Below are positions 3,927 to 49,272 of a DNA stretch of 64,000 bases, piece after piece; position 1 is the stretch's first letter, and each line of letters opens with the position of its first letter. The translations under genes and the position numbers were made by a program. Below the pieces are notes generated by a model. The model saw nothing but the letters and a program-made list of their open reading frames with translations, was not told the DNA's origin and searched no databases. Source of the stretch: a virus (lineage: Duplodnaviria; Caudoviricetes); IMG/VR virus record IMGVR_UViG_2061766007_000330; one strand, given 5' to 3'.

Positions 3927-6900
3927 ATGGCAACTCATCAACAATCGAACCAGAGGGTGCGTCATGTCGTATGCACGCAGACAGAGTACGACGCACTGGT
4001 TTCGTCGAACGCAATAAATTCGGCGTATTTGTATTACATTACCGATAAAGCCTGTCTGTACAGAGGTTCCACCAAACTGTCGTTTAACAAAGAAATAGTC
4101 TCTGCTTCTGATTTGACAACCATCTCAAGTCCAAAGACAGAGACTCTTTATGTTTCTTCGGCGTCCAAGGCAGTTGGAATCTACCACGACAGTGCATGGG
4201 TTATCCTTTCCCCAGGGTATATTTCAACGATAGCCGACAATCAGGCAACGGCTAATAATGGCAAGCTCGTAACATCCAAGGCGGTTATTGATTACATTGC
4301 AACAAAGGTCCGTAAATTGACAGTGGTGAATGTGGATGATCCAACAACGTCCATTCAGTCACCAGTGGCCAACACGATTTATTTTTCTTCGACGACAAAT
4401 AAATCTGCGTTTTGGGACGGAACTTCATGGCTTGTTCTTCACGGAAAACATAGAGGGTTTGTCATTGTTGGTGCCAATGTAACATTCACTGAGAGTGGAT
4501 TATCCACAGCGGGACTGCTTTCTCCGGATACAGTGTATGCGCAACCGTCCACAAAGAAACTTGGGTATTACGACGCTTCCAGCAATTGGTATTTGCTGTC
4601 TGACGGTGGATCGAATTTAACGATTGTCTCGACAATCGGCAACGACACTGCCGATAGTGCCATTCCAAATGTCGGTGCAGTAAAAGACTACATTTTGAGT
4701 CTGCTGTACGATATTGGCGGACAGTATCAGGACGATTCACGTACGTTTATGGTCTATGATGGCGACACATCGGTTGAAGCCGATGAGTTAAAAAAAAAAC
4801 TAAACTGGACGTTTTATGAATCGGCGCAGAATCTCGATGATTATAACTACACGGATAACGGTGTAGTTGAAGTTGTTAAAACAGACGGTTATCGAGATGC
4901 TGGTTTAGCGAATCCGGTGGATACAGAACCAGCCAGAATATTTTACAATAATGAATTTGATAAACCGTTTTCACATCCGTTGGTCGATTCCGTTGCACGT
5001 CCGGCGGATGAATACGCACAGCTGACTCCGTTGTATGGAATTGATGACAACATCGCCGTAGCAACGGGAACACTTGATTATTCACAGACCGATTCGAGCA
5101 GTACCTATGCCGTCGAACGACGAAGCGCTCCATATGTACCAACTGACGTGTTGTATGCGTTTTATCGTGCCGGCTATCCGCTCACTTTTACGTTTTTGAC
5201 GACCTTTCTTTCGACGATTGACCACACCTTCGGCAACATCGACAATCTAGACAACAACGACTTGTATCATTCAAATAGTGCCGCAGCGTTGTCTGGAAAC
5301 ACCAACGAAATTTATGGTATTCATTTTCTGAATTTACCATTATTGCAGTCGGAATTTGTAGCTTTGTCTACAATGAATAATGACTTTTTACTACATAGGG
5401 GTCTTTTAGAGAATCAACACCATTTCATTCGGCATCCTGTCCCAAAATTCGCATTAAATAAGGAATCTGGTACACTATGCATTTATACAGAACGATTTAG
5501 CAACTCTGTTGGGTATAAAGAGGTTTCTTATGCAACTTCTGGTCGTATTCTGAATGAATCTCTATCTGACAGACAAGAGGCAATTGACGGTAGTCGAATA
5601 TATTTGAATCCTGGAAGTTACCCTGCCGAGAGTTCTATAAGTCAGTTATCTTCTATTGTGCCAGAATTAAATCGTCTTGGATTTAGTCTTGTAAATCACA
5701 CCGGTCTCGCATCGTCGTCACAATCGGTTTCAGATGGCGTTGTCAAGAACGCCATCATGATTTCTGTCGGCGAGCTTTATACGAATGATTGTTTTTGTGG
5801 AGCCGTTGGTTTGAATGTCGCTTACAAATCAGGAATCGTTGATGAGTTATTGGTGTTTCCAGGAGTCGACACTCGGTCGTCTGTGTCATGTATTGTTTTT
5901 TATCGGCGCCGCAAGATCAACCTTGACGTCGATGAATATATCACGTCACTGACCGGCGGCCCTGGTATTTGTGATGCGTCACCCAATACGGCGTCGACCA
6001 ACATAAACAATACAAATTCCAATATCTATTCCAACTCGAACTACGCATCGGGTGCACATCACAGTGGCTATTTGCTGACTAGCAAAAAGAAGCTCTATGG
6101 AAATTATACAAACTACTATGGAGGAGCCACCAAATCGTGGGATTTAATTGCATCAAACGTATCGCATTTAAGCGGATTTTCTGTAAGTAAATCTACTTAT
6201 GGTCCGAATTTGATGTTCACGCCGCGACGTGCGTTGATTATTACATCTACACCTGGAGAACATCCTGGTGAAGATCCAACGTTAGCCCTTGGGACAGTTG
6301 GTTATAATCGATATGTGACGACATCAGATTACACAGATATCAATAGCCAGACATATACTCGGTATGGTCGATTTGAAGTTGAAATGATGAATTTCAAAAA
6401 TGTCATCACTCGATTCAAATACTCAACGGTTGAACCGGTTGCGATTGCTGGATCGTCTGGTATTGGTTATCACGATTATCAATGTACGGTGACACAGGAT
6501 AGACGTGAGTGGAATCAGTGGATGTATGAGAACAATGGCGCCGGTTATCATCACGATTATCGTTGCAATTATAATACACGTTTTGGATATGGTGTTCGTA
6601 AAGTTGGTAGTTTGAATACGGAATTTTCTGCAGATAATGGTGATGATCCAGATCTCGAACCATATCAAACGGGAATTGGTGATGAATTTCGTGATTCCAG
6701 AACATTCCAAATGGTCGGATCCATCGCTCCTTCTATTTGTGGTGGGGTTCTGTTCAAAGTGACGTCTGGTAGCAACGTTGAATATTATCCAATTGCCATA
6801 GGACCCATTATTCGTGTAAAGGATTCTCCAAACGGAACACTGATGTTTCTTACAGGAAACGCACTGTTGGGTCGTTCATTATGTTGCCCAAATTACAACG

Positions 6901-7508
6901 ATATGAATGGGAGTTCTACAGGTAATTGCATTTACAAGAAACCTGTAACAATGACATCTCCAGACAACGGCGAATACTGGGAACCAGGACAACCGCTTTA
7001 TGTCTGCAACAGATTCATAGGTGCAAATGTGTCGTTCTATCGGCATCAGTATCATTCCGCTGCTGAATCTGGTAGTATCTATGCGTATCAAGCGACCGAC
7101 GAATCGTCGTTTATGTCTCGTATTTTCTTTAACGTTATCAACGGATCTGGTGAGAACATCCATCCGCAGTATCGGTCACAAGTCAGACACGACTTCTATA
7201 CAGACGACGAATTGACGCTGTATGATTATTTGACGTTGGACATCAGTGAATCTCATCCAGAAGACAACGCCCCGTATTACACTCGGACATACGGAACCAC
7301 GTTCTATTCGACAGAAGGTGCTTCGGATCCGTGTGTCTACGCACCATTTCAGATTATGAGACAAGCGATAGAATATGTCAACGAATTAAGTGTAAACAGT
7401 AATCTTGGACCTATTTCATTTAACGAAAGCAGTTACAACGAACTCCGCGTTGAGCGTTTCGAACTCGTGGCGCACAACAACTTTGCAATTATCTTTTCAT
7501 CTAAGTAA
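3927..7508 (+). CDS. long fibre / receptor-binding-like virion protein (1193 aa)
   Basis: N-terminal module TQTEYDAL...LYYITD...LYRG typical of phage fibres; three short internal repeats (TLYV/TIYF/TVYA...W); beta-rich S/T/N/G/Y body. Confidence 0.6.
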   Translation: MATHQQSNQRVRHVVCTQTEYDALVSSNAINSAYLYYITDKACLYRGSTKLSFNKEIVSASDLTTISSPKTETLYVSSASKAVGIYHDSAWVILSPGYISTIADNQATANNGKLVTSKAVIDYIATKVRKLTVVNVDDPTTSIQSPVANTIYFSSTTNKSAFWDGTSWLVLHGKHRGFVIVGANVTFTESGLSTAGLLSPDTVYAQPSTKKLGYYDASSNWYLLSDGGSNLTIVSTIGNDTADSAIPNVGAVKDYILSLLYDIGGQYQDDSRTFMVYDGDTSVEADELKKKLNWTFYESAQNLDDYNYTDNGVVEVVKTDGYRDAGLANPVDTEPARIFYNNEFDKPFSHPLVDSVARPADEYAQLTPLYGIDDNIAVATGTLDYSQTDSSSTYAVERRSAPYVPTDVLYAFYRAGYPLTFTFLTTFLSTIDHTFGNIDNLDNNDLYHSNSAAALSGNTNEIYGIHFLNLPLLQSEFVALSTMNNDFLLHRGLLENQHHFIRHPVPKFALNKESGTLCIYTERFSNSVGYKEVSYATSGRILNESLSDRQEAIDGSRIYLNPGSYPAESSISQLSSIVPELNRLGFSLVNHTGLASSSQSVSDGVVKNAIMISVGELYTNDCFCGAVGLNVAYKSGIVDELLVFPGVDTRSSVSCIVFYRRRKINLDVDEYITSLTGGPGICDASPNTASTNINNTNSNIYSNSNYASGAHHSGYLLTSKKKLYGNYTNYYGGATKSWDLIASNVSHLSGFSVSKSTYGPNLMFTPRRALIITSTPGEHPGEDPTLALGTVGYNRYVTTSDYTDINSQTYTRYGRFEVEMMNFKNVITRFKYSTVEPVAIAGSSGIGYHDYQCTVTQDRREWNQWMYENNGAGYHHDYRCNYNTRFGYGVRKVGSLNTEFSADNGDDPDLEPYQTGIGDEFRDSRTFQMVGSIAPSICGGVLFKVTSGSNVEYYPIAIGPIIRVKDSPNGTLMFLTGNALLGRSLCCPNYNDMNGSSTGNCIYKKPVTMTSPDNGEYWEPGQPLYVCNRFIGANVSFYRHQYHSAAESGSIYAYQATDESSFMSRIFFNVINGSGENIHPQYRSQVRHDFYTDDELTLYDYLTLDISESHPEDNAPYYTRTYGTTFYSTEGASDPCVYAPFQIMRQAIEYVNELSVNSNLGPISFNESSYNELRVERFELVAHNNFAIIFSSK

Positions 7509-7516
7509 CCACACCC

Positions 7517-9619
7517 ATGTTTAACAAGAAAACCAGAGACTTTTTGAGAGAATGGCATCAAAAACACGAAGCGGGCAGGTCAGAGACGACGGAAACTGTC
7601 GAAGAACCGAAGACACCGGAACAGTCGGTTCAGACGCCACCGTCAGCGTCGGTTCCTACACCTCCTCCACCAGAGCCTGTGGTTGAGCCGACACACTCTG
7701 ATCCAAAACCAGTGATTAAAGACGTGGCTCCCAAGCCGAAGAAGCCTGAGATTCCACCGTCTCCGTTTTATTACATGCCGAAGCCGAAGGCGTCGCAACT
7801 AGCCGTCATAAAACGTATGGATGAAATGAAAGACAATTCGCCAGAACATTTTTTTTGTCCGTCGTACGAATTCAAGAATGACATGGTAGCAGACTTAGCT
7901 GTCATTATGGTTGTCTGGGGTAACAACGACCTCCAAATCAAGGCAACTGAAAAGGCGTTAAGTTATTTGTCGTTGATGACACCAGGTCCTGGCGTCTTTG
8001 TGTTTCTTGAAGCACAAGTCGATGGAAAACCACGTTACAAGTCGCTAGTTAATTCAATAAACTCGTCGTCGGTTGAGTACCTGTTCGACAAGATTTCTGA
8101 AGAAAATTCGTTGTATTTTCTAAAGGAATCTATGATGAATAAGGCTGTTTCTTTTGTTCAAAAAAATTATCCGAATATAACAAAACTTCTGTTTATGGAT
8201 TCGGATGTCTATTATCCGAACGCGTCGGCGTTCCAGCATATTTCTTACGACTTGGAACATGCGGAAGTTCTGTCTCCGTATTACAAAGCTGTGTATGTTG
8301 GAAACAATGACCAGTCTGCTAATTTCAAATCGCCCCTGGCAGTTGAATATGTGACGTCTTACTACAGAAATAAGAAAGTTACTATTGGGCATGATAGTTA
8401 TTTCGCAGGGTTGGCGACAGCGATGACCATGTCATTCTATAACCGTATGAACGGGATTGATGTTGTGGCTTGTGTGTCTGGAGACAAATGGCTTTGGACA
8501 CGGATATTTGGCAATGATCTGTTTGGTCAGAAACCATATCAGCAGCCAAATCAAATATGTTTACCGGTGAAGAAAGGCTTAGATCCAAAACCGAAGATTG
8601 GATATTCACACGAGGCAATAATTCATTGTTACCATGGAGACATGTCCAATCGGAACTATCGTCTGAAGCTTTATTTGGATAAATTGTCGAAATCGTATCC
8701 AAACGAATCGTTGGTTTTAGACGACAACGGTTATCCTGTCACAAGAGACACGGACGCAGGAAAGGTAATCAAAGCCGCATTCACTCGACTTAAAACTTCA
8801 AATATTTATGAAAATCGTCATCAACAGGAGTATAATCTCCAGACCGTGAGGTCTTTGTACAACCGTTGTGCAGATGAAGTTTATGGTCCTATAAACGACG
8901 AGAATCCTTTAGTGGTTTGCACGGTGCTTCGAAAAGGAGGTCCGTATGACGAGCGTCATATCAAAGCGCTCTATGACGGAATGAAGGAGTATTGTCTTAC
9001 GCCGTTTAGGTTCGTGTGCATTACAGATTTGGACATCAATGTTGACGGTATTGAAGTTGTGCCGTTTATGACAACGACTCGACAGATGCCGTACTATTAC
9101 AGTCAGCTGGAATGCTATCGTCCTGACTTATGGGATCCGAAGACAACATCTGTGTTTTGCATCGATATTGACGTGGTGCCTGTTCGTCCATTCACATTAC
9201 ATCAGTGCCCTAGAGGTACGGTGTTTATGCTTCCAGAGATGGATAGCATGTGGCAGTACAGTGGCTCGACTGTCCTTTGGAATGGTGGAACCGTCTATTA
9301 TCGAGGAGATTATTCGTTCATAATCGACGCCTTCATGATGCAGTCTTCTGATGGTAACGTGAGGAGTCCGTACATCACACATGTGTCATCTCAAGAAGTT
9401 GCTGCTGGTTATTTGTATGCTAGCGGTATTCCAATTGGTGACATTCGGTGTCATGTTCCTTTGGAGCTCTATAATCCAAAGGAAAAGCCTGAAGACATCG
9501 CATTGGTTCATTTTCCTGGGAATCCAAAACCTTGGAATTTGTCAGAAAAGGACATGCCGGTGTGGATGCCAGAACGTATAAAGGAATTAGGCTCCTTTAA
9601 AAAAGCCTATGAAGCCTGA
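7517..9619 (+). CDS. two-domain glycosyltransferase (GT-A N-domain plus GT8-like C-domain) with Pro-rich N-terminus
   Basis: KES..N, FMDSD, HCYHG..NRNY; C-domain GGPY, FVCITD, DIDVV, WNGG, VHFPGNPKPW. Confidence 0.8.
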   Translation: MFNKKTRDFLREWHQKHEAGRSETTETVEEPKTPEQSVQTPPSASVPTPPPPEPVVEPTHSDPKPVIKDVAPKPKKPEIPPSPFYYMPKPKASQLAVIKRMDEMKDNSPEHFFCPSYEFKNDMVADLAVIMVVWGNNDLQIKATEKALSYLSLMTPGPGVFVFLEAQVDGKPRYKSLVNSINSSSVEYLFDKISEENSLYFLKESMMNKAVSFVQKNYPNITKLLFMDSDVYYPNASAFQHISYDLEHAEVLSPYYKAVYVGNNDQSANFKSPLAVEYVTSYYRNKKVTIGHDSYFAGLATAMTMSFYNRMNGIDVVACVSGDKWLWTRIFGNDLFGQKPYQQPNQICLPVKKGLDPKPKIGYSHEAIIHCYHGDMSNRNYRLKLYLDKLSKSYPNESLVLDDNGYPVTRDTDAGKVIKAAFTRLKTSNIYENRHQQEYNLQTVRSLYNRCADEVYGPINDENPLVVCTVLRKGGPYDERHIKALYDGMKEYCLTPFRFVCITDLDINVDGIEVVPFMTTTRQMPYYYSQLECYRPDLWDPKTTSVFCIDIDVVPVRPFTLHQCPRGTVFMLPEMDSMWQYSGSTVLWNGGTVYYRGDYSFIIDAFMMQSSDGNVRSPYITHVSSQEVAAGYLYASGIPIGDIRCHVPLELYNPKEKPEDIALVHFPGNPKPWNLSEKDMPVWMPERIKELGSFKKAYEA

Positions 9620-9694
9620 ATCGGTTATGCCATTATATACCGACACACGGTTGTTTTGTACAAAATTAACTAAGACAAAAAGGAAATTAAAACT

Positions 9695-10900: not shown

Positions 10901-10932
10901 TTTCTAAAAACGATTTAAAATGATATAGACGC

Positions 10933-10965
10933 AGACCTAGGCGAGCGTCCAGCTCGCCTAGGTCT
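10933..10965 (+). terminator. intrinsic terminator after fibre gene
   Basis: 14-bp perfect stem AGACCTAGGCGAGC followed by a T-rich tail. Confidence 0.8.
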
Positions 10966-11000
10966 TATCTCTTATTTGTTAACTCAGAGGAGTATTTTAA

Positions 11001-12713
11001 ATGTTGGACACGTTTTTAAAACACCAAAAATATTGTGAAGACGTTCTTAGTAAAATAAACATTAAAGACCTTTCACACATGACATTTTCCGCTGCTGGAG
11101 AAGAGGTCAACAATTACTTTGATGATACCGACATAGCTGTAATTGTCGCATTTAGTGGAGAAGATTCAGAAGACATCAACAGAACAAAGCAAATGATGAA
11201 AAGACTCACCGAAATGCGACCAGAACCACATTGTATTGTGTTTTATGAAGCGCAGTTGCAAGGAGTTGAATTTCATTTTTCGTATTTAAAATCTGTAGAC
11301 AATGTCGTCTATCGTCAAGTAACTTTAAAGGAAGAAGAAACGTTTATTGACCAGAAGATCTGTCTCTGGAATTTAGGTGCACAATATGTAATGCGATCCA
11401 AATACGGACGTGGTGTTGCTAATTTTTTGTTTTTAGATAATTCCGTATACTTTGTAAATCAATCCATATTACCAATCATTTCAGAAAAATTAAAAACATG
11501 CGATTTGATTCAGCCGTTTGCAAATGCAGTATGCCCAGACGATCCAGATTACGAATACAACGGATTTATGTCCGTCGCAAAAGCGTATGTGACAACAAAA
11601 AAAGCAAGTCTTTTGAATTGGTGTGGCCTGGCTTTGGCCATGACGCGTATTTTTTACAATAGTTTAGGGTCGATTCCGTTTGCTCCTATTGATAACATGG
11701 AAGCTGAATTTTGGACACAGATATTCTCCATCAAGGAAATGCCTGTGACGAAATTCACGCCTTATGTGTATACTCAACTTCAACGTTACAACATGTTTCC
11801 AATGCCTAAAATAGGATATATCGAAGGTGCTGTAATTCATATCGGAAAAGCCAAGGCTTGGAGAAATCCATATCAGCCGTCTGTTTTGAGAAAATACACG
11901 ATTATCAATCATGAGGAATACAAAATAAACGCAAACGGCTTGGCGGTTTATCGAGACACGCCGACTGGCGCAGTTTGTAGTGAGCTGATGCCTGTCATGC
12001 TTGATTCGTCGGTCACTGGTAACGATGTGTTCAAGAAATACACAGACGAAGTGGCTCATGTAATTTACGGGTCATATACGGAAAGCAATCCTCTGATTAT
12101 TCTCTATTTGGAACGCGAAACCAACGATGTTGCAGTAAAACGTGTTCAGAAGATGAAAGAGCTGTGGGACAGACATTGCCTGACTCCACATAAATTCATT
12201 TGCATTTGCAACGTGGAAATCGACGGTGTGGAAACGATTAAACGCAATTATACGTCCAACGAATTGCCGTGGAATTTCTCGACACTGGAATTTTTTCGTA
12301 AGGAATATTCGGATGAATCAACGGGCGTGTTGTGCGTGACGAGTCACATCAAACCCGTTAAAGATTTTAATATTCCAAAGTGTTTGCCGAACACCGTCTG
12401 TATGTTACCACTTGGCAAACTGGCGCAGACACGGGAACAAAAATCATCAAATCTGATGTATTACTCTGGTGATTTCACGTTTATTGTTGACGAATTCATC
12501 AGCCGTCTCTACGGTGAGCCGAATCAAAATCCGTTCTTTATTGCGGCGGACGCTGCCGAATGCATTGCCAATATCCTTTACAAATATGGTTATTATGTGG
12601 ATTCAACTGACCGTTATTTAGACGTCGATATTGAAGGAAACGAAAAATCTCTTATGGTTTTGGTCGAGGAGGCATCTTATAACTCCGAATCCTACCCGAT
12701 ATCATCACTGTAA
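11001..12713 (+). CDS. two-domain glycosyltransferase paralog, catalytic motifs degenerate
   Basis: aligns with its neighbours (K..LWN, LIQPF, GLALAMTR, PKIGY, NPL.I, HKFICI) but has FLDNS and VTSHI at the DxD positions and lacks HF..PKPW. Confidence 0.7.
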   Translation: MLDTFLKHQKYCEDVLSKINIKDLSHMTFSAAGEEVNNYFDDTDIAVIVAFSGEDSEDINRTKQMMKRLTEMRPEPHCIVFYEAQLQGVEFHFSYLKSVDNVVYRQVTLKEEETFIDQKICLWNLGAQYVMRSKYGRGVANFLFLDNSVYFVNQSILPIISEKLKTCDLIQPFANAVCPDDPDYEYNGFMSVAKAYVTTKKASLLNWCGLALAMTRIFYNSLGSIPFAPIDNMEAEFWTQIFSIKEMPVTKFTPYVYTQLQRYNMFPMPKIGYIEGAVIHIGKAKAWRNPYQPSVLRKYTIINHEEYKINANGLAVYRDTPTGAVCSELMPVMLDSSVTGNDVFKKYTDEVAHVIYGSYTESNPLIILYLERETNDVAVKRVQKMKELWDRHCLTPHKFICICNVEIDGVETIKRNYTSNELPWNFSTLEFFRKEYSDESTGVLCVTSHIKPVKDFNIPKCLPNTVCMLPLGKLAQTREQKSSNLMYYSGDFTFIVDEFISRLYGEPNQNPFFIAADAAECIANILYKYGYYVDSTDRYLDVDIEGNEKSLMVLVEEASYNSESYPISSL

Positions 12714-12733
12714 ATAAAAGGGTTTTATTAACA

Positions 12734-15700: not shown

Positions 15701-16804
15701 CCATTTACGACTACTGCCGGAACTGTCTACTATGACGGATTCTATGTCTTAACAGATCCGATGGCTCATGGCACAAACCGCATTTGGAAACATACCGATT
15801 CGGACGCCACTATTAGAGCACGAACTGTTAATGGAAGTGTCCGATGGATTTGGACGTCGTTGACATCCGAAGAAGACATTACCAATTCGTTGAATAATTC
15901 CGATATGAGTACGTTATATGCGTCAGCAACCAATCAGAATGGAGCGTATGCGACCAATCCGTTTGACGATGGTATTGTCTGGCAAGAAAAAATGGCTGGT
16001 GAGTATCGCGTAACGAGGTGCGAAGCCGTTGAATGGCTTGAAGACCTGACAATCACCTTTACATCCAACAACGAAGTTGCAAGACAACAGCTGGTAACAT
16101 TATTTGATACGACAAACGACCGTGAAATGGATCTTCCGAATGTCACACTGACGTCGTATCCAGATTCCAATAAACGCTGGGAAGGTGGAGAAGGCGGAGT
16201 GAGTGCTCGTAGAAATTATATCATCGATTACGATGAATCAAATAATTGCTGGTCGATGCATATCGAGTATGACATGGAAACTGTTGCCGAGTATGTGTCG
16301 GCAGAGTCCTATAACGAAGCGCATACGCCGATAGATGTGATGACGTGGAACTTTGTCTCCGGAACGAACATTGGTACGCCGAGTGTTACGTGGACACCGA
16401 AGGTCTTTGGTGCAATTACCAGAAACAACAACGCTGTTTCTAAGGGTGACAAATACAGACTATTCCATCTTTCTGACTATCTCAAAGAAGCGAATACTGC
16501 AATCACGCACCGCGAGAAGTGGAACGCGTTCTACGAAGGTCCTGATCAGGTTCCTCTTATTTGGTCTGAAGCCAAATGGAATGAATCCGAGTCCAAGTGG
16601 ACGATTGGTATTGTTCAGGGCATGATTCCAGATTACAGAGAAGCCGATGGTGGCGATCCAGAATTCCAGATTACCTCTGGAGCAAAATTCGTTTCGGACA
16701 ATGCTCCTGAATCGATCTTTGATGTTACCGGTTGGACACTGTCGCCTGCAAATGCGACGGCAGGCAATCTGACCTTTACATTCAAACCGATTGTTCGTAA
16801 CTAA
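12734..16804 (+). CDS. large PEGA/Ig-like repeat virion or adhesin protein (1356 aa)
   Basis: repeated beta-sandwich units of about 75-90 aa (F.DV.GF.TP, PG.H...., G.Y.V); V/T/N-rich; Trp-rich C-terminal repeats. Confidence 0.65.
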   Translation: MPQPDNLLPVTNPTGKTVSVKPGHHKIIFKDVDGFKTPQTVYVFVQPGTKQVINATYIPADMGQYAVQFVMEDQMSLHGSIEVPGFTVNDKHDVYKSANTNGNLWVSEYAPLKVSVENTLHFTDVYGFATPADLTNITISDGAKVLREDPIIYERLQGSITVRMIDENDNPVPNAQWKIADSRITEWNSGNTTIEMPVDKFNLQYREYNASLNTVVSSDDSDYIPPSVTRIPVVMSQTGETVVTVRYESKSSYNATVTVSVNGPDGAGWTLNINNRSIGPKVSGESVAVYLGKDTTQSSVGTVVFSDVANYDKPSNIENIIIHPKDVKELASLVDYKPYIGKLVLDAPPVKYNDGTSLKVCIAKVTGTTVEITDASGNRSNVTLGFDTYLPFGDYTITGYNVGNKVYETPNPTNPTITINVQPIGSETTPSNVRVGWTAQHVQIADYIYPSEAIDVEIKESENVSVGSALDNVTVGFNHSDTNMNMTFGKNFDEKVLVGTWNYANTISNIPEGYKLYSVTESVNVLPNQTSKITVNIDSPETLKDVVTIHVTDNVGETVPGAYVTIDNDSTHYTNGAVVKLAPGQHTFHAVEISNYLSPSDYTYTAVERGRNHSVNCIYVENVAHVYVTSSDRPNAKFLVDNDPTEHPVGDTPVKLGIGAHTITYLADGNYRPDKVSDTVNLERGDVRTLSITYTGYGKAKATLKDSVTNADVTGTIVLKNQTTNVVVATITANNNTVVDIPEGTYNVDVINIDSNYNAPSVSSITINAESTTLIISRVATYKYGSVKVRLLGDATTEGVYNDVLSGSASLWQNNAKVMDITPNNNSFTNVPTGTYIVKATVSTSGYSEVQNGQVTVTPHSEDVVNMHATYVCATVKATLKGNYQENQENYSRDLEGTVSIYNSNDELVGTITPNNNSSTIVLTPGTYRATASVTTADYNLTEASQTFTVSSRETKTLAFTARFYSETPEVSAGVLNVQIRSNYGSELAPFTTTAGTVYYDGFYVLTDPMAHGTNRIWKHTDSDATIRARTVNGSVRWIWTSLTSEEDITNSLNNSDMSTLYASATNQNGAYATNPFDDGIVWQEKMAGEYRVTRCEAVEWLEDLTITFTSNNEVARQQLVTLFDTTNDREMDLPNVTLTSYPDSNKRWEGGEGGVSARRNYIIDYDESNNCWSMHIEYDMETVAEYVSAESYNEAHTPIDVMTWNFVSGTNIGTPSVTWTPKVFGAITRNNNAVSKGDKYRLFHLSDYLKEANTAITHREKWNAFYEGPDQVPLIWSEAKWNESESKWTIGIVQGMIPDYREADGGDPEFQITSGAKFVSDNAPESIFDVTGWTLSPANATAGNLTFTFKPIVRN

Positions 16805-16821
16805 AAACGATTAATCACAAT

Positions 16822-16853
16822 ACCTATGGGTGTGCTTTGACACACCCATAGGT
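16822..16853 (+). terminator. intrinsic terminator
   Basis: 13-bp stem ACCTATGGGTGTG followed by TTATTTT. Confidence 0.8.
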
Positions 16854-16879
16854 TTATTTTATTCTAAGAGAAACTGATT

Positions 16880-17869
16880 ATGGAAAAGAAATACCCACCC
16901 AGAACACAGCAGATTGTAGATACTTTGCGAATCACACCGATGGCAAGATCTGTTTATTCGTTGCCTTGGAGAGACAACGACTTACCTGCTTATGATCTAT
17001 CTCAAGTCGTTGTCATGTGTCATTATGGTGACGACAAAGCAAGGCTTTTGTCTACGAACAAAGCGCTCGTGTCAATGCTTACATACAGACCCATGCCAAT
17101 GATCTATTTTGTTGAAGGAAGTTTTACCAAGAACTTTCATTATCAAAGCATGATTCTGGAAACGTTTAAACAGAATTCTGTTTATTTTAAGATACCACTG
17201 ACGAACAAGTGCAAAGGAATGTTCATCAAGGAGGCACTTTGGAATTATGCAATCATCAATAGACGACATGAGTTTGAAAATTATACGTTTCTTGATTCTG
17301 ATTGTGATTTCATGGACCGTCACTGGGTTAATGAAACTAAAATAAAGCTCCAGAAATATCGTGTCGTGTCACCGATGTCTCATGTGATTTATTCAACGCT
17401 TGACAAATATGGGTTTGTACCAACATGTGGTTATTTATCAGAAACAAATCCAAATTCAACATATCCTGGATTTCCAGGCATGGCTGTCTCCATGCAAGCG
17501 TCGTTCTATCATGACATTTTGAAGTGTATGCCAAATGTTGTTGTAGGATTCGGAGACATTGTTCTATGGGGAATGTTGTTAGGATCTGATCGATTCAGAA
17601 ACTATAAATGCAGAGTATACCCAGTTACAGAATTATCTAAGTATAATTTGCCCAAGATAAAAATATCATATGTCGATGGGGTTCTGAGGCATCATGACCA
17701 CGGACCTATCAACGACCGTCATTATGTGGCAAAAGCAAAGGCGTTGAATGAGTTTTCAAAGATGCCATTTTCCGAATATGACTGTGACGAATCAACAAAT
17801 TGGTTACCGCAATGGAAAGACACAGACGAAGTCAGGGCATTGCGATGCCGACTTAATGAAATAGTGTAG
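16880..17869 (+). CDS. single-domain GT-A glycosyltransferase paralog
   Basis: KEALWN, FLDSDCD, PGMAVSM, GFGD, HHDHG..NDRHY. Confidence 0.8.
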   Translation: MEKKYPPRTQQIVDTLRITPMARSVYSLPWRDNDLPAYDLSQVVVMCHYGDDKARLLSTNKALVSMLTYRPMPMIYFVEGSFTKNFHYQSMILETFKQNSVYFKIPLTNKCKGMFIKEALWNYAIINRRHEFENYTFLDSDCDFMDRHWVNETKIKLQKYRVVSPMSHVIYSTLDKYGFVPTCGYLSETNPNSTYPGFPGMAVSMQASFYHDILKCMPNVVVGFGDIVLWGMLLGSDRFRNYKCRVYPVTELSKYNLPKIKISYVDGVLRHHDHGPINDRHYVAKAKALNEFSKMPFSEYDCDESTNWLPQWKDTDEVRALRCRLNEIV

Positions 17870-17881
17870 AGGATTAATTCA

Positions 17882-19843
17882 ATGAAACAACCGATGATTA
17901 TCAACCTGTATGGTGGCTATCGTGGAAACTTTCATGTCAAACTGGCAGAAGCTCCGATAAATCCAAGACCTCCTGTGATTCCGAGACCTGTTCATAAGAA
18001 CGCTGTGATCGGACGACCTGTTCCACCGCCAAATCCACCGACTAAAGGATTTCCTGTCCCACAGGAAGTTCGTGATATGCTGACAAAGGCATCACGTGAT
18101 CGTGTTTGCAAGATTGTTTACCAGGAACCACCAGCCATTCCGTTGATGTATGCAGATGATACTGCGATTATTATTTCCACGTATGGGAATGATGAAAAGC
18201 GACTGGGAAATCTTAAGCAGATGTTGAACAGAATTGCTCTGTTTAATCCTGCTCCGTTTGTGTTTGTTGTTGAAGGGTCTTACGACGACACGTATCATGC
18301 GGATAAACTATGCGAAGGAAAATCAAGAATGACGCATGCCACAATCAAACTGGATCCTGTGTCACAGAAAGGTATTTGGTTGAAAGAAGGCATGTGGTCT
18401 GTGATGGCCAATGCTATTTGTGATTCTGAAGAATACAACGGAATCAAATATTTTGTCTTCTTGGATGCGGATATCATTCCGTATGAAAGCGATTACATCA
18501 CTCGTGTTCGTGAGACTTTACAGAAAAACGAAGTGGCTTCACCGTTTGCGTACGCATATTTTGCGGATCACAACGACGAAGTTTCCTTACGTCCGAGTAT
18601 TGCGTTTTCCATTTTGGAACGTGAAAAACGTGGTTATCCTGGGTTTGGATTTGCCATGACCCGAGAGTTCTTCAAGAATCGTTTGCATGGACAATTTGAG
18701 GCGATGCCGCCTGCGGATACAATGCTGTATCACAAATTGTTCCCGTGGGAACACGAATGTCCTCGTAAGAGTCGTCCGTTCCCGACACACAAGTATGCAG
18801 AATGTCCGATGAATCCAAGGCCGTTGGTTGGTTATGTTCCTGCTGTTATCGGTCACATGGAGCACGACAGCAATCATGATGACAACTGGTATTCCGCATT
18901 GGCAGCCATTCATCGTTTATCGGCGTCATCGTTGAATGAATTGGTTATTTACAACGATAAAGGCCTGCCATACTGGATTGATGGTGGTGAGGATACAGAC
19001 GAAAAGGCAACGATTTTCCGTGAACTCAAGGACAAAATCTATGAACTACATGCAAACGGAGATCCTCTGGATCCCATGACGGTTAAGGATTGTTATGAAG
19101 ATGTTGCTGCTAGTGTCTACGGACACATTGATGCTGATCATCCGTTGGTTATCGCTTGTCTTCTGAGGATGGGTGGTCGGTACATGCCGAATCAAGTCGA
19201 GTTCTTGGCTGCTGAGTTCAAGAAATATTGTCTGGTTCCTCATGAATTCGTCTGTTTCACAGACTATGAAGGAACTATTGATGGTGTTCGTACGATTCCA
19301 TTGGAAACAACTCCAGAAGAAGCTCCTGGTACATTGGCACAGTTGGAGTTCTTCAGGAACCTGTGGACTCCGAACACAAGCATTATGACGATTGATCTTG
19401 ATACGGTTGTCATGAATGCCTTTACACCTCATGTCTGTCCTGATGACGGGATTTACATGTTGCGCGAAGCGTTTAATCGTAAAGATTCCAATAAGGATTG
19501 GGTTCTGTGGAATTGCGGTCAGATGTATTTCAGGGCAGGCAAGTTCTCGTTCTTGTATGACAAGTTCAAGGAAGAAGCACAACAGAAATGGACTCATCGG
19601 CATCCGGCGTTCCAGTACATTGGTACTCAGGAATACATTGCTGCAAATATCAAAGCCGGAGGTTATTACATTGATGATCTGATTCATCATTTCATCTACA
19701 GCTTCTATCATGCGACAGAGCAGTGGATGTGGGTTTTGGATGGCTCGACATTCATTCATTTCCCTGATAAACCAAAGGCGTGGGAAGTCACAGCTCCGTG
19801 GAATAAGGAAATATTTCATAGATATCCAAGAGGGCTTCGTTAG
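17882..19843 (+). CDS. two-domain glycosyltransferase with Pro-rich N-terminus
   Basis: WLKEGMW, FLDAD, PGFGFAMTR; C-domain FVCFTD, DLDTV, WNCG, HFPDKPKAW. Confidence 0.8.
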   Translation: MKQPMIINLYGGYRGNFHVKLAEAPINPRPPVIPRPVHKNAVIGRPVPPPNPPTKGFPVPQEVRDMLTKASRDRVCKIVYQEPPAIPLMYADDTAIIISTYGNDEKRLGNLKQMLNRIALFNPAPFVFVVEGSYDDTYHADKLCEGKSRMTHATIKLDPVSQKGIWLKEGMWSVMANAICDSEEYNGIKYFVFLDADIIPYESDYITRVRETLQKNEVASPFAYAYFADHNDEVSLRPSIAFSILEREKRGYPGFGFAMTREFFKNRLHGQFEAMPPADTMLYHKLFPWEHECPRKSRPFPTHKYAECPMNPRPLVGYVPAVIGHMEHDSNHDDNWYSALAAIHRLSASSLNELVIYNDKGLPYWIDGGEDTDEKATIFRELKDKIYELHANGDPLDPMTVKDCYEDVAASVYGHIDADHPLVIACLLRMGGRYMPNQVEFLAAEFKKYCLVPHEFVCFTDYEGTIDGVRTIPLETTPEEAPGTLAQLEFFRNLWTPNTSIMTIDLDTVVMNAFTPHVCPDDGIYMLREAFNRKDSNKDWVLWNCGQMYFRAGKFSFLYDKFKEEAQQKWTHRHPAFQYIGTQEYIAANIKAGGYYIDDLIHHFIYSFYHATEQWMWVLDGSTFIHFPDKPKAWEVTAPWNKEIFHRYPRGLR

Positions 19844-19845
19844 TC

Positions 19846-21774
19846 ATGAACATACGTAAACCATATTCAAGTGTAATAAAGATGGCGCGATCCACACGAG
19901 AGACCATGTATAATCGACAACTCTCTCCTGTGTTTGTGCCAAAAGTCAAACCTAAGCCTGTCTCTCAGATACAACGCCAGGTTCAGGAAGTGCGGGAACG
20001 AAAATATCCATTCTTTCCTGAGCCTGTCGAAAAAGTCTATGACAGATGCTATTTAAACGATACGGCTATGCCAGTCTTGTATGAGTCTGCACAAGACGGA
20101 ACTCTTTTGACCAATATAGCCATAATCTATTCGGTGTACGGACACTCGGATATTCGAAAGGAAGTATTTGACAGTGTCATGTCTCGAATGACCAACTTAT
20201 TGAATCCTAAAGCACTTATATTCATTTGCGAAGGGCAGTATGACAACGTCTGGGATTTTGAGAAATATAAAGACATTCCAGGTGTTGTCTACTATCCTTA
20301 TCAGTTGAATCCAGAAACACAAGACGGAATCTGGCTGAAAGAAGGTCTATGGAACTACGCGGCTCACATGCTAATGGAAGATGCTACGTATGACGACGTT
20401 CAGTATTTTCTGTTTTTAGACTCCGACATTATTCCATATGAGAGTAACTACATAGCCAGAGTCTTGAACACACTGAAGACTTATTCCATTGCCGCTCCCT
20501 TTGCAGTTGGGTATTACTCGAATCAAGAAGACCGAAAGCATGAAATATTCACAAGCGTCGAATACGGATATAGAAAAAAGACACAGTACTATAAGCATCC
20601 TGGATTCGGGTTTGCAATGACTCGTGACTTTTATAAAAACCGTGTAAAATACTTTGAGAGTGCTCATGCAGGAGATACGATTTTTTGGAGACGAGTTTAT
20701 GGAAAGCGCTATGTGATTCCGCGTCGACATGAGATTGTTTCTGTAGATCGCATCACCGAGCAAGGTATGGTTCCAAAACCGTCTGTTGGTTATGTGGATG
20801 CGTTATTTGTCCATATTCACCACTCAGCTCGGTTGGTTGATTATTATCTTGGCAGCGCCACAGCGTATCGTCTGTGTTGTACAACACTAGATGACCTATG
20901 GAAATTCGACGCATACGGAGTTCCGTTTGATTCAGGTACGATAAAGTCGAAGATATTTAAACAGTTGTGGTCGATTCTCATGAAAGCTAATAGCAAAGAC
21001 AAACCATTGACCATTAGAGAAACTGCTGCTGTTTATGAGAAATTGGCATGTGATGCTTATGGTGAAATCAACGATGAATACCCTTTGGTCGTTGCCTGTG
21101 TATATCGTCCGTATGGACATTACACGGAAGATCACGTCCGTCATCTAAAAGCACAATTTGAAAAATATTGTCAAGTACCTTTTAGGTTTGTCTGTTTTGC
21201 CGACAATGATGTAGACGGAGTGGAAACGATAAAGTTGAACACATCACCCGAACAATCGCCTGGAACATTACCGCAAGTGGAATTTTTTAGAGACATCTGG
21301 TCACCAAACGCAAGTATCTTGACATGTGACTTGGATACTGTGATAATGCGTCCGTTTGTTCCTCATCGGTGTCCTATCGATACGGTTTATATGCTTAAGG
21401 AGTATGGAAACAAACAAGGTGCAAATGTTGACAGGATTCTGTGGAACTGTGGAATGATGTACTTCCGTGGTAGACAATTTGTTCAGGTATATCGTCAATT
21501 TGAACGGGATGTTCTAGATGCCGTTAAATGGCATCATCCTGCGTTCCAGTATATCGGAACACAAGAATATATCGCCTCTATTCTTAGAGGTCAGGGTATT
21601 TCACTTGACGATATCGGACATCATTTTTCATACTCGTTTTTCTCGAAAGATCTCGATCGGTGGGCGTTGCCAGATTCTGCGTTTATGCATTTCTGCTGGT
21701 ATCCAAAACCTTGGGAAGCTGCTGTCAAAGATGTGATTCCGCAAGCAAAGGATTTCCCACCGTCGGCAATTTAA
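19846..21774 (+). CDS. two-domain glycosyltransferase, closest paralog of 17882-19843
   Basis: WLKEGLWN, FLDSD, PGFGFAMTR; DLDTV, WNCG, HPAFQYIGTQEYIA, HFCWYPKPW. Confidence 0.8.
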   Translation: MNIRKPYSSVIKMARSTRETMYNRQLSPVFVPKVKPKPVSQIQRQVQEVRERKYPFFPEPVEKVYDRCYLNDTAMPVLYESAQDGTLLTNIAIIYSVYGHSDIRKEVFDSVMSRMTNLLNPKALIFICEGQYDNVWDFEKYKDIPGVVYYPYQLNPETQDGIWLKEGLWNYAAHMLMEDATYDDVQYFLFLDSDIIPYESNYIARVLNTLKTYSIAAPFAVGYYSNQEDRKHEIFTSVEYGYRKKTQYYKHPGFGFAMTRDFYKNRVKYFESAHAGDTIFWRRVYGKRYVIPRRHEIVSVDRITEQGMVPKPSVGYVDALFVHIHHSARLVDYYLGSATAYRLCCTTLDDLWKFDAYGVPFDSGTIKSKIFKQLWSILMKANSKDKPLTIRETAAVYEKLACDAYGEINDEYPLVVACVYRPYGHYTEDHVRHLKAQFEKYCQVPFRFVCFADNDVDGVETIKLNTSPEQSPGTLPQVEFFRDIWSPNASILTCDLDTVIMRPFVPHRCPIDTVYMLKEYGNKQGANVDRILWNCGMMYFRGRQFVQVYRQFERDVLDAVKWHHPAFQYIGTQEYIASILRGQGISLDDIGHHFSYSFFSKDLDRWALPDSAFMHFCWYPKPWEAAVKDVIPQAKDFPPSAI

Positions 21775-21873
21775 TGAAAGCAACCCTCCCTCTTGATCTT
21801 CAGGACATGATATAAGGGGACTTGTTAATTGAGGAAGATTAACATTAATTACAAAAGAGGGAGGGTATGCACA

Positions 21874-22236
21874 ATGAAGACATATCTGTATATAGTCTTT
21901 GTTTCGTTATTGACTGCATTACTCCTGTACACTACGGGGTGTCAGTCATCTGAGCAACTCACGTACATTCAGAGCAAGAGAATCAAATATGCTACTGCTG
22001 CACTGAATCGTCCGATTGTTGAAGGAACCAATGTCAAAGCCGACAATCTTAAGGTGTATGGACAGGCTCCGGAACTGGATCCAATGGTTGATCCTCTTAA
22101 GGAATGGCTAGATGCGGGTGTTGACGTTCTTAAAACTGCCGGTATGTTCTGGCTTGGTGGAAAGATCGTCAAGAAACTTAGCAAGGATCCAAAAGCACCG
22201 CCTAGAGCGGTATCGACGAAAGCAGGAGGTGAGTAA
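21874..22236 (+). CDS. putative lipoprotein
   Basis: start moved to the ATG at 21874 (GAGGGAG RBS); signal peptide ending in a lipobox-like TTGC. Confidence 0.6.
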   Translation: MKTYLYIVFVSLLTALLLYTTGCQSSEQLTYIQSKRIKYATAALNRPIVEGTNVKADNLKVYGQAPELDPMVDPLKEWLDAGVDVLKTAGMFWLGGKIVKKLSKDPKAPPRAVSTKAGGE

Positions 22237-22238
22237 CT

Positions 22239-22463
22239 ATGAAGAAACTACTTACTTTGATGTTTATTAACACTTGGCTGTTTGTTGGCTGTGTTGGACC
22301 GTCGGTCGTGGCTCTCGGATCGAATATCAACTACTCAACTAACGAAGCTTCAACCGAAGGTCAGGTCAACATAGGCGCAAAAAAGCCCGCGACAAACGAT
22401 GTTAACTATAACGGGGGAAAGCTAAACGTGACCAACAATGCTTCAGTTGAAAAAACGAAATAA
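22239..22463 (+). CDS. small putative lipoprotein
   Basis: MKKLLTLMFINTWLFVGC lipobox; GGAGGT RBS. Confidence 0.65.
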   Translation: MKKLLTLMFINTWLFVGCVGPSVVALGSNINYSTNEASTEGQVNIGAKKPATNDVNYNGGKLNVTNNASVEKTK

Positions 22464-22475
22464 AGAGAGGGATGT

Positions 22476-22934
22476 ATGAAAGAAGAACTTATTGATGTGA
22501 CCTCGTGTGGAAAGGCTTATCGCCTTGATGATGAGGGTCTGTGGTATCTCGAAGGGTACTACGAACTTACGGACGAACAAAGAAAGTCCATTTGTAACGG
22601 AATTGGCGCCGCTAGTGGCGTGTCCAAGAAATTCCCCAACACGGTGTGGGGATTGAATTGTAAGACTGCTGGTGATCGTCATGATTATTCTTACTACGTT
22701 GGAGGTACTGCTAACGACCGCTATCTTGCGGATAAGTATTTTTATCTGAACCTGTCGATCCTTGTTCACAGGGGTTGCTGGCTTCTGTTGCCTTTCCGCA
22801 TGGATCGTATTCGCAAGTACTATATCGCATTGCGTGTCTTTGGTGGATTCCATTTCGGAACAAAAGACGATGGTGACATCGTTTCAGATTCCGAAGCTAA
22901 ACAGGAAATCAAAGAACTGGATAACGCAGAATAA
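22476..22934 (+). CDS. phospholipase A2-like fold protein
   Basis: CNGIG...C...DRHDYSY..GG...R..AD..F...YY.ALR.FG pattern with an HD dyad. Confidence 0.55.
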   Translation: MKEELIDVTSCGKAYRLDDEGLWYLEGYYELTDEQRKSICNGIGAASGVSKKFPNTVWGLNCKTAGDRHDYSYYVGGTANDRYLADKYFYLNLSILVHRGCWLLLPFRMDRIRKYYIALRVFGGFHFGTKDDGDIVSDSEAKQEIKELDNAE

Positions 22935-22966
22935 ATTTGTTTGATCAAGTCCCCTTTACGTACACG

Positions 22967-22991
22967 GGATGGACGGTTTTTCCGTCCATCC
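22967..22991 (+). terminator. intrinsic terminator
   Basis: stem GGATGGACGG/CCGTCCATCC with a T-tract shortly downstream. Confidence 0.7.
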
Positions 22992-23034
22992 TATGTACCA
23001 TGCTTTTTTGTTCACAAACAAAGGAATTTGTTCT

Positions 23035-23805
23035 ATGAGAAAATTACTTGTAAACATACCTCCACAACCGCTGCGTAAGCCTATTCGTGTTGCTCCTGCA
23101 AGACCGTTACGTTATGTGACAGGGACGTTGGCTGAATATAAACGTGCTATTGTTGACGGATTGATTACAGAAACAGACGAGACTCTGTATTTCATTTTAG
23201 ATACGTGTGAGATTTATCGTGGACTTCGTCGCTTCAGTATGGGTGACCCACGAATGATTTATAACTACATTGATAGAAAAATTGCGGATAGAGTCAATGC
23301 ATTGATTCGTTTGAACAGCCCTAAGGAGGCCGCCGAGATTCTCTCTCAGCAGCCTGGATTTAATGGAGCTATTTTCAGATCGTTTGATGACATTGCGAAG
23401 GAAGCGGCTGTTGGTTACAGACCCCCGTGCCCTCCACCAGTTGCATATCCGCCACCGCCTCCATGTGCTCCCCCACCACCTCCTCCACCAAGACCTGGAT
23501 ATGTTCCACCGAGTTATCAGCCTCCTGTTCCAGTGCCACCACCTCCAAGACCGTATCCACAACCTCCGTATCCGCCATATCCTCCGTTCCCTCCGCCTCC
23601 ACCACCGCATGGAAAACCAGATCCGTATCAAGAACCTGAACCAGAGCCTGAACCCGATGTACCAACCCCTACTCCTCCGGATGATGATAACGATGGTTGC
23701 CACTGCAATTGCAATTGTGATGGTTATGGAGGTGGTGACGGCGGTTATGTGGCCTTAGAGGGAGAAGTGTGGCTGACGTTTGATGAACTTATGAACAGAA
23801 TTTAA
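23035..23805 (+). CDS. fibre-N-module protein with poly-proline (extensin-like) stalk
   Basis: likely start at ATG 23035 (AAGGA RBS); LYFILDTCEIYRG module; P/Y-rich tract; EP repeats; CHCNCNC. Confidence 0.7.
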   Translation: MRKLLVNIPPQPLRKPIRVAPARPLRYVTGTLAEYKRAIVDGLITETDETLYFILDTCEIYRGLRRFSMGDPRMIYNYIDRKIADRVNALIRLNSPKEAAEILSQQPGFNGAIFRSFDDIAKEAAVGYRPPCPPPVAYPPPPPCAPPPPPPPRPGYVPPSYQPPVPVPPPPRPYPQPPYPPYPPFPPPPPPHGKPDPYQEPEPEPEPDVPTPTPPDDDNDGCHCNCNCDGYGGGDGGYVALEGEVWLTFDELMNRI

Positions 23806-28996: not shown

Positions 28997-29341
28997 ATGA
29001 AAAGCTTATTCGAAGTGATGTATGGCAAACCCTTAACTTTCAGGGAACCTATCATTGATGGCTCGCACCCGTCGTTGTTTGACGACAAGGACCTGATGAC
29101 TGCCTCGGCAATGCTATCGGACGAAATCGACACGGCTACAAGTATCAGTAGGGGGACTCCGTTGGTTGTGTTCTTTGGAAACAAGGACAACGGATTAAAC
29201 AAGATGCTTGCTAAGCATGGATATAAGTCAACCGATAAGCCGATGCTGATTGTCGACGATCTCATCATCTACATCACAAACCCAGAAAATCGACTGCAGC
29301 GCAAAGAAACATCACCTATGTTAGGACTTCAAAACGTATGA
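28997..29341 (+). CDS. hypothetical protein
   Basis: 114 aa; AGGAG RBS. Confidence 0.65.
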   Translation: MKSLFEVMYGKPLTFREPIIDGSHPSLFDDKDLMTASAMLSDEIDTATSISRGTPLVVFFGNKDNGLNKMLAKHGYKSTDKPMLIVDDLIIYITNPENRLQRKETSPMLGLQNV

Positions 29342-49182: not shown

Positions 49183-49272
49183 TGAAAACGCTCCAAATTG
49201 TTAATATAATGGACTTTTAAGTGGTTCATAAAATTGCCCAATTTGTATCCAAATGCTGGAGGAAAAACACAT

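Follow-up and report, generated by a model that had tools for sequence, protein, structure and literature searches.

Two-domain glycosyltransferases encoded among the fibre genes of a phiKZ-like jumbo phage as candidate enzymes of fibre glycosylation

Virion glycosylation is known from archaeal viruses and giant viruses. Among tailed phages, the literature that we found describes it only for the capsids and tail tubes of actinobacteriophages: capsid and tail-tube subunits are glycosylated in the mycobacteriophages Che8, Corndog and Myrna, according to Freeman et al. 2023 as cited in PMC12619734. Our literature search turned up no account of glycosylated fibres for tailed phages of bacteria. 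In the chlorovirus PBCV-1, the glycosyltransferase (GT) A111/114R acts on a virion protein independently of the host machinery (PMC7826918), and the GT clusters of jumbo phages have been proposed to modify host glycans (Iyer et al. 2021; PMC7824862). Here we analyzed a 20-kb locus (positions 3927 to 23805) of a 64,000-nucleotide stretch of viral DNA (IMGVR_UViG_2061766007_000330; hereafter the window, meaning the whole stretch), in which five GT paralogs are interleaved with genes for fibre-like and adhesin-like proteins. A first-pass annotation had proposed that this locus is a dedicated glycan assembly line for the fibres. The best reading of our results, which we put forward tentatively and at a little under even confidence, is that the two-domain GTs glycosylate the fibre and adhesin proteins of the phage itself. 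We infer these acceptors, along with the donor sugars, the form of the product (a short glycan or a polymer) and the benefit, which may be shielding, stability or adhesion.

The window covers part of the genome of a distant phiKZ-like jumbo phage: PHROG families of that group are matched by its tail sheath (49234-51921) and by several of its virion proteins, and in tblastn searches Goslar, RSL2 and Erwinia and Vibrio jumbo phages show only 22-29% identity to window proteins. All open reading frames (ORFs) named by the first-pass annotation were present on the plus strand, where it had placed them. The GT and structural genes of the locus are, in order:

3927..7508, + strand: g3927, 1193-amino-acid fibre-like protein with a shared N-terminal module; Ser, Thr and Asn together make up 26%
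7517..9619, + strand: g7517, 700-amino-acid two-domain GT, both domains intact, with a Pro-rich N-terminal ~100 amino acids
9695..10900, + strand: g9695, 401-amino-acid fibre protein with the N-terminal module and four HxH motifs
11001..12713, + strand: g11001, 570-amino-acid two-domain GT paralog, catalytic motifs degenerate in both domains
12734..16804, + strand: g12734, 1356-amino-acid prealbumin/Ig-like protein, candidate adhesin or decoration protein; Ser, Thr and Asn together make up 28%
16880..17869, + strand: g16880, 329-amino-acid single-domain paralog (N-domain only), motifs intact
17882..19843, + strand: g17882, 653-amino-acid two-domain GT, both domains intact
19846..21774, + strand: g19846, 642-amino-acid two-domain GT, sister of g17882
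22969..23805, + strand: poly-proline protein with the fibre N-terminal module, likely start at 23035; 21.9% Pro

The claim that a GT comes directly after every one of the first three structural genes proved correct, with gaps of 8 nucleotides (nt) from g3927 to g7517, 100 nt from g9695 to g11001 and 75 nt from g12734 to g16880. The start of g12734 lies 20 nt past g11001, and the three downstream GTs are separated by 12 and 2 nt (g19846 starts 2 nt past g17882). Two strong hairpins fall exactly in the two long gaps, each 3' of a structural gene and 5' of a GT:

10933..10965, + strand: hairpin with a 14-bp stem, terminator- or attenuator-like, between g9695 and g11001
16822..16853, + strand: hairpin with a 13-14-bp stem followed by a T-run, between g12734 and g16880

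This arrangement resembles an attenuation device set between abundant structural genes and the enzymes that go with them, and the hairpins may set the ratio at which the two are expressed. Matches to sigma-70 promoters occurred at chance level (42 vs 42.8 expected) and were disregarded.

All-against-all BLASTP upheld the homology of the five same-strand GTs. The closest pair, g17882 and g19846 (38-39% identity, E = 1e-143), also forms a sister pair with a support of 100 in a tree built by a quick method; g7517 is 28% identical to these two (E = 1e-60), g11001 shares 23-27% identity with the other paralogs (E = 1e-28 to 1e-49), and g16880 matches only their N-terminal halves (E = 1e-9 to 1e-19). 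The same quick tree is compatible with a single origin of the window paralogs as well as with several. Each of the four two-domain paralogs consists of an N-domain of ~300 amino acids followed by a C-domain of ~230 amino acids, and none of the five proteins has a transmembrane segment. The total of nine GT-A domains given by the first-pass annotation is right (4 x 2 + 1), but the catalytic motifs are kept in only seven of them.

The conserved positions of the N-domain are E, K, DxD, D and HxxH, and those of the C-domain are DxD, WNxG, Q, H and H..PKxW. The N-domain motif D139-x-D141 (g16880 numbering) is present in four of the five window paralogs and is nearly invariant across 40 family members, and, of the two-domain paralogs, g7517, g17882 and g19846 retain the C-domain motifs D505-L-D507 and H626-F-x3-P-K-x-W (g17882 numbering), whereas g11001 has lost them. 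In the alignment and residue table, the N-domain of g11001 reads D-N-S in place of DxD and has a D replaced by E and an H replaced by K; in its C-domain DxD has become T-x-H, WNxG is gone, a His is replaced by Tyr and the C-terminal H..PKxW is absent. This protein also has by far the longest branch of the tree (2.59). Because both of its domains have lost conserved catalytic positions, g11001 is probably a pseudo-glycosyltransferase.

The persistence of g11001 as a full-length ORF despite the loss of its motifs, together with the Pro-rich N-terminal extensions of three paralogs, would also fit a mainly non-enzymatic role for these proteins, either as fibre-specific assembly chaperones, adaptors or virion components built on a GT-A scaffold; in the same category we place the glycosylation of some other small molecule or lipid. 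We regard this alternative as improbable. Across a span of 20-40% identity, all family-conserved catalytic positions are intact in seven of the nine domains, which points to selection for catalysis.

AlphaFold models of the N-domain (g16880, model mf2346f05bdc5; predicted local distance difference test, pLDDT, 91.7) and of the C-domain (g17882, model m2767307f54cf; pLDDT 84.3), together with fold searches, bore out the GT-A fold that had been assigned from the letters. The N-domain is predicted to have a GT2-type inverting GT-A fold, with the heparosan synthase PmHS2 as the top VIA-align match (Z = 15.8, root-mean-square deviation 3.7, 220 residues aligned), followed by RmlT and SpsA (Z = 15.4-15.7), K4CP, WrtF, TarS and TarP (Z = 15-15.7) and, further down, ppGalNAc-transferases (Z ~13.5); the Foldseek match had an E value of 4.5e-8. 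The C-domain is predicted to have a retaining GT8/GT6-type GT-A fold, with glycogenin-1 (Z = 14.4, root-mean-square deviation 3.9, 203 residues aligned), GlyE (Z = 14.0), LgtC (Z = 13.6), blood-group transferases and WbbM (Z = 13.3-13.7) as neighbours. GT6 enzymes tie with GT8 enzymes for this domain (Z = 13.4-13.7), and LARGE1 is among its Foldseek matches. The fold neighbours of the two domains also include CgT (Z = 13.3). Sequence identity to PmHS2, K4CP, WbbM and LARGE1 is only 10-14%. Taking the stereochemistry from these fold neighbours, we infer that one chain joins an inverting N-domain and a retaining C-domain. A comparison of the N- and C-domain alignments with hhalign was not used, as some rows span both domains and the result is an artefact.

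Profile libraries hardly register this family. On none of the window proteins, nor on the 32 family members searched, did a Pfam GT2 family reach its threshold, and the N-domain is therefore a GT2-type fold without a curated family, as judged on Pfam rather than on CAZy or dbCAN. The C-domain gave sub-threshold matches to PF01501 (on g7517 only, 17.6 bits vs a cut-off of 24.3) and to PF03407 (Nucleotid_trans; 17.7-18.9 bits vs a cut-off of 22), and glycogenin at E = 0.68 in a PDB profile search; NCBIfam had no match on the locus proteins. Since Pfam annotates almost none of the 32 members, we call the family uncurated, and we found no description of such a two-domain family in the literature. 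The C-domain does match phrog_1962, annotated in PHROGs as "glycosyltransferase" (E = 7e-11 to 7e-17; g7517 E = 6.6e-17), which is the family of PmgQ of phage P1 and HdmD of phage P7. Among GenBank phages, the C-domain has no relatives other than these two proteins (E = 4e-6 to 3e-5, with 27-29% identity over ~120 residues), but they have a single domain and are not encoded beside the P1 fibre operon.

Several described systems resemble the locus in part. The mycobacteriophages Che8, Corndog and Myrna use phage GT-A enzymes on their own structural proteins in the cytoplasm, which was demonstrated there and is proposed here from the genes; their acceptors are capsid and tail-tube subunits (PMC12619734), whereas the candidates in the window are fibres and adhesins of a phiKZ-like jumbo phage, and their GTs differ from the two-domain family with five paralogs found here. 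The chlorovirus enzyme A111/114R is alike in its domain types, as it joins GT8-like (LgtC/GlyE/WbbM-like) and GalNAc-transferase-like GT-A domains in one viral protein, but it is a three-domain protein of a eukaryotic giant virus, its domains are ordered differently, and the capsid glycans that it makes are N-linked (PMC7826918). In fold and gene logic, the locus also resembles bacterial adhesin loci (PsrP with GlyE, and the Fap1 pathway with CgT), where the genes of dedicated cytoplasmic GT8 and GT2-type enzymes adjoin that of the fibre-like adhesin which they decorate. The serine-rich repeat adhesins are surface proteins, exported by an accessory Sec system and primed by a GT-B enzyme, in which they differ from the products of a phage locus. 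Finally, the co-polymerases PmHS2, K4CP, WbbM and LARGE1 likewise carry an inverting and a retaining GT-A domain per chain, but extend lipid- or protein-linked polysaccharides processively; the window GTs are likened to them by predicted fold. The kind of GT-A enzyme is thus already known, and what appears to be new is a fibre-coupled, paralog-expanded two-domain family that includes a pseudo-enzyme.

On the side of the presumed acceptors, the label fibre/adhesin is reasonable but only partly demonstrated. The N-terminal module is common to g3927, g9695 and the poly-proline protein and occurs nowhere else in the window; matches of these proteins to PF24243 are sub-threshold (18.6 bits for g3927). 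Distant relatives of g9695 include PF03406 (Phage_fiber_2) proteins from 350-380-kb contigs. The protein g12734 is without the fibre module and has one PF17802 SpaA (prealbumin-like) domain (27.3 bits vs a cut-off of 23.1), and self-BLAST found no repeats in it. In the ESM Atlas, g12734 has leads to CarboxypepD_reg/SpaA/PEGA clusters at 0.8 only, and g3927 has sub-0.9 leads only; otherwise these genes are orphans. The richness in Ser, Thr and Asn that the first-pass annotation had pointed to is found (24-28% in the three large proteins vs ~20% in other virion proteins), but the enrichment is small and not diagnostic. With a GC content of 0.559 and a third-position GC content (GC3) of 0.572, g9695 departs from every neighbouring gene (0.39-0.45), which suggests either recent acquisition or a strong compositional bias from its richness in Ala, Gly and Thr.

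To place the locus among relatives, we combined nucleotide, protein and profile searches. Megablast of the 20-kb locus against GenBank phages found no nucleotide-level relative, tblastn of g17882, g3927, g12734 and g9695 against the same phages found no match, and scans of viral contigs with protein P0002 and the flanking DHH gene found no relatives. When 1.84 billion representatives were searched exhaustively with HMMER, 72 proteins of the GT family were found at E <= 1e-30, of which ~30 are full two-domain forms; longer fused forms add only further GT2-type domains. In the Oligosphaera phylum, 2 of 401 sampled genomes carry the family, and in the order of a gut Rikenellaceae metagenome-assembled genome (MAG), 1 of 401 does. 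All copies in these sampled host-lineage genomes lie in a prophage, a phage contig or a degraded remnant, the genome of Oligosphaera ethanolica DSM 24202 holds a prophage copy only, and in ~800 sampled genomes the family was not found in host glycan loci. Because its copies are rare and always in such phage-derived settings, the family behaves as a phage gene and not as a resident of host polysaccharide loci.

The neighbourhoods of these relatives (numbered L001 to L062) bear on whether the link between GT and structural gene is conserved. In L001, a 57.8-kb contig binned with the gut Rikenellaceae MAG, the gene order is baseplate wedge, gpI-like protein, 1017-amino-acid tail fibre, GT, lipoprotein, second tail fibre and tail-fibre-assembly homolog; the GT, 32% identical to g7517, starts 14 nt past the tail fibre on the same strand, and an integrase-like ORF lies ~1.4 kb past the fibre cluster. 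In L053, a prophage in the chromosome of O. ethanolica DSM 24202, the order is tape measure, tail proteins, a 305-amino-acid ORF, the GT after a gap of 10 nt, and a lipoprotein, and an integrase-like ORF lies ~4.5 kb downstream. In L052, a large beta-helix-like ORF ends 7 nt upstream of the GT. Here and below, the labels integrase, beta-helix, Mtd-like and phospholipase A2-like on neighbouring ORFs were assigned by eye unless backed by a search. The linkage is looser in L020, with tail-protein genes and a homologous lipoprotein upstream of the GT, in L023, where, as in L027, the GT lies between a lipoprotein and a 968-amino-acid protein with an FGE-sulfatase/C-type-lectin-fold domain, and in L029. 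Lipoproteins adjoin the GT in L001, L020, L027 and L053, as in the window, and L024 and L030 each carry tandem GT duplicates. The expected conservation of the GT-fibre linkage was therefore found for the most part (L001, L052 and L053) and fails in a third clade (L056-L058), described below.

The GT of L001 occupies the post-fibre slot in which P2-type phages place an assembly chaperone, as the non-enzymatic alternative would have it, but L001 already has a separate assembly-protein homolog (phrog_188). The tail fibre of L001 (L001:6771-9824) has a Peptidase_S74 domain in mid-protein (residues 558-618), followed by ~400 more residues that include phage-tail-repeat and HxH motifs. This layout is unusual, since an S74 domain normally sits at the C-terminus and is cleaved off. 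S74 domains act as intramolecular chaperones. The GTs of L052 (a 3.3-kb contig of an "Armatimonadota" MAG) and L053 (from Oligosphaera, phylum Lentisphaerota) are nearly identical in the tree (branches of 0.10 and 0.04), and either the MAG contig is misbinned or the same phage is present in both bins. The 401 genomes of the Oligosphaera phylum yielded a single further genomic copy, L062 (G275:C4:322000-341900), which is probably part of a decayed prophage. Its surroundings, which include a group II intron reverse transcriptase and a transposase-like ORF, are degraded and gave no synteny information.

The third GT clade belongs to L056, L057 and L058, which are mutually syntenic phiKZ-like jumbo phages. 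In L057 (L057:4556-14817; IMGVR_UViG_2061766007_000586, 318.6 kb), the GT is flanked by the genes of a RuvC-like resolvase and of an SbcC-like ATPase, with a DNA polymerase fragment nearby, and this block is kept in L056 and L058; a 511-amino-acid neighbour of the L057 GT is not GT-like. The gene context of this clade is the only reason to consider DNA glycosylation, in which sugars would be added to hydroxymethylated or otherwise modified phage bases for restriction evasion, and which is the commonest role of GTs in lytic phages (PMC12619734). The subtype of L056-L058 may act on DNA. As an account of the window, however, DNA glycosylation is very improbable: all five copies lie among fibre genes and not among replication genes, none of the window proteins scanned, from 64 kb of the genome, was recognised as a base-hydroxymethylase or TET-type protein, and the replication-linked clade is a distinct subtype with an intact N-domain and a degenerate C-domain.

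A more serious alternative, only somewhat less probable than fibre glycosylation, is that the enzymes alter the host surface, masking a receptor. The GTs would then act at the cytoplasmic face on lipid-linked intermediates of O-antigen, capsule or teichoic acid, and an alpha/beta disaccharide or polymer cap, exported by the host, would hide the receptor of the adjacent fibre; the gain would be superinfection exclusion, serotype conversion of a lysogen, or progeny spared adsorption to debris. This role is the one proposed by Iyer et al. 2021 for jumbo-phage GT clusters (PMC7824862), and it fits the co-polymerase architecture of PmHS2, K4CP and WbbM, the place of TarP, a teichoic-acid enzyme of prophages, near the top of the fold matches, the integrase-like ORFs near the GTs of L001 and L053, and the exported lipoprotein that recurs beside the GT. 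Phage P22 offers a known parallel, as its conversion genes gtrABC immediately adjoin the receptor-binding gene 9. However, gtrABC is convergent with that gene, forms a separate unit under a promoter and terminator of its own, and has membrane proteins as its products (a flippase, a bactoprenol GT and a translocase), whereas the window GTs are soluble, operon-coupled and co-directional with late structural genes, at a spacing of 2-20 nt besides the two larger gaps. The locus encodes no membrane components and no flippase or polymerase partners, with no Pfam match to flippase, Wzx/Wzy or Gtr/GtrA-like genes among its proteins. Moreover, the phage is phiKZ-like and has no integrase or lysogeny genes among the window proteins scanned, a dead paralog such as g11001 would be useless for host conversion, and the family was not found in host glycan loci of the ~800 genomes sampled.

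Glycosylation of the phage's own fibres is favoured over these alternatives for several reasons. Tight co-directional spacing of GT and fibre gene recurs across four independent lineages of phages (gaps of 8 nt for the window, 14 for L001, 10 for L053 and 7 for L052); the host-conversion module of P22 is built differently; the GTs have no transmembrane segment and no membrane or export partner in the locus; the family is phage-borne and sporadic; and a full-length, catalytically degenerate paralog is kept beside a fibre gene. In addition, the fold neighbours include protein-glycosylating enzymes (glycogenin, GlyE, CgT and ppGalNAc-transferases), chlorovirus A111/114R joins the same two domain types (PMC7826918), and the phage is of the phiKZ-like type, with no integrase among the proteins scanned.

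Other observations count against fibre glycosylation. The fold neighbours equally include enzymes of lipid-linked polysaccharides (TarP, TarS, RmlT, PmHS2, K4CP, WbbM and LgtC). The temperate phages L053 and L001 carry the GT near an integrase-like ORF and beside an exported lipoprotein, which fits conversion. Genes for conversion or exclusion usually lie in such a spot. The matches by which g3927 and g12734 were identified as fibre-like are weak, the enrichment in Ser, Thr and Asn is modest, and the GTs of L056-L058 are not beside fibres. Overall, the anatomy described by the first-pass annotation stands, and so for the most part does the linkage; two of the nine domains (both in g11001) are catalytically degenerate, as judged from their residues, and the proposed assembly line on the fibres goes beyond anatomy and linkage.

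If fibres and adhesins are indeed the acceptors, the locus would be a late-expressed module coupled to receptor-binding-protein genes, in which soluble, cytoplasmic, bifunctional GTs add sugars to these proteins before or during tail assembly. With its GT2-type inverting and GT8/GT6-type retaining domains, each enzyme would make one beta and one alpha linkage, and it would be co-made with the structural gene just upstream (g7517 with g3927; g16880, g17882 and g19846 with g12734). Beside the HxH fibre g9695, g11001 probably kept a non-catalytic role, for example in binding the fibre or the glycan. In its fullest form, the proposal is of a phage-specific beta/alpha GT family that is co-transcribed with receptor-binding genes, builds fibre and adhesin glycans, accompanies fibre cassettes as they move between jumbo phages and small temperate phages of diderm bacteria, and includes a pseudo-enzyme as a fibre-specific adaptor; it would be the first fibre-glycosylation system in tailed phages outside the actinobacteriophages. 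Taken as a whole, this proposal is possible but doubtful.

Two further features of the window lie downstream of the GTs:

21814..22956, + strand: three-gene cassette within an exact 11-bp inverted repeat, with a lipoprotein (21874-22236), a second lipoprotein (22239-22463) and a 152-amino-acid protein (22476-22934)
29338..30348, + strand: GHMP-superfamily kinase (PF00288 and PF08544)

The repeat of the cassette consists of AAGGGGACTTG and its complement, with 0 expected by chance, and the lipoproteins were called from a signal peptide and lipobox in the sequence. The 152-amino-acid protein (g22476) has a homolog at L053:12578-12979 (31% identity, E = 2e-6), in the same order of GT, lipoprotein and this protein. 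Its CNGxG...HDxxY...D pattern resembles, by eye, the motifs of parvovirus-type phospholipase A2. The best solved relatives of the GHMP kinase are heptose-7-phosphate and sugar kinases, and mevalonate kinases score almost equally, so that an assignment as glucuronokinase is unsupported and no sugar substrate can be assigned. The kinase may feed the sugar-nucleotide supply of the locus; no nucleotidyltransferase partner was found near it.

If fibres are glycosylated by enzymes encoded right behind them, their glycans would be an unseen factor in host range, in the stability of fibres, in their recognition by antibodies and in tail-fibre engineering, and a fibre might behave abnormally when its partner enzyme is not expressed with it. 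If it is the host surface that the enzymes recode, a lytic jumbo phage would carry receptor-masking functions paired with its fibres. Either reading defines an uncharacterised, phage-restricted family of two-domain GTs, and with O. ethanolica DSM 24202, a cultured lysogen that carries a member of the family, the question is testable.

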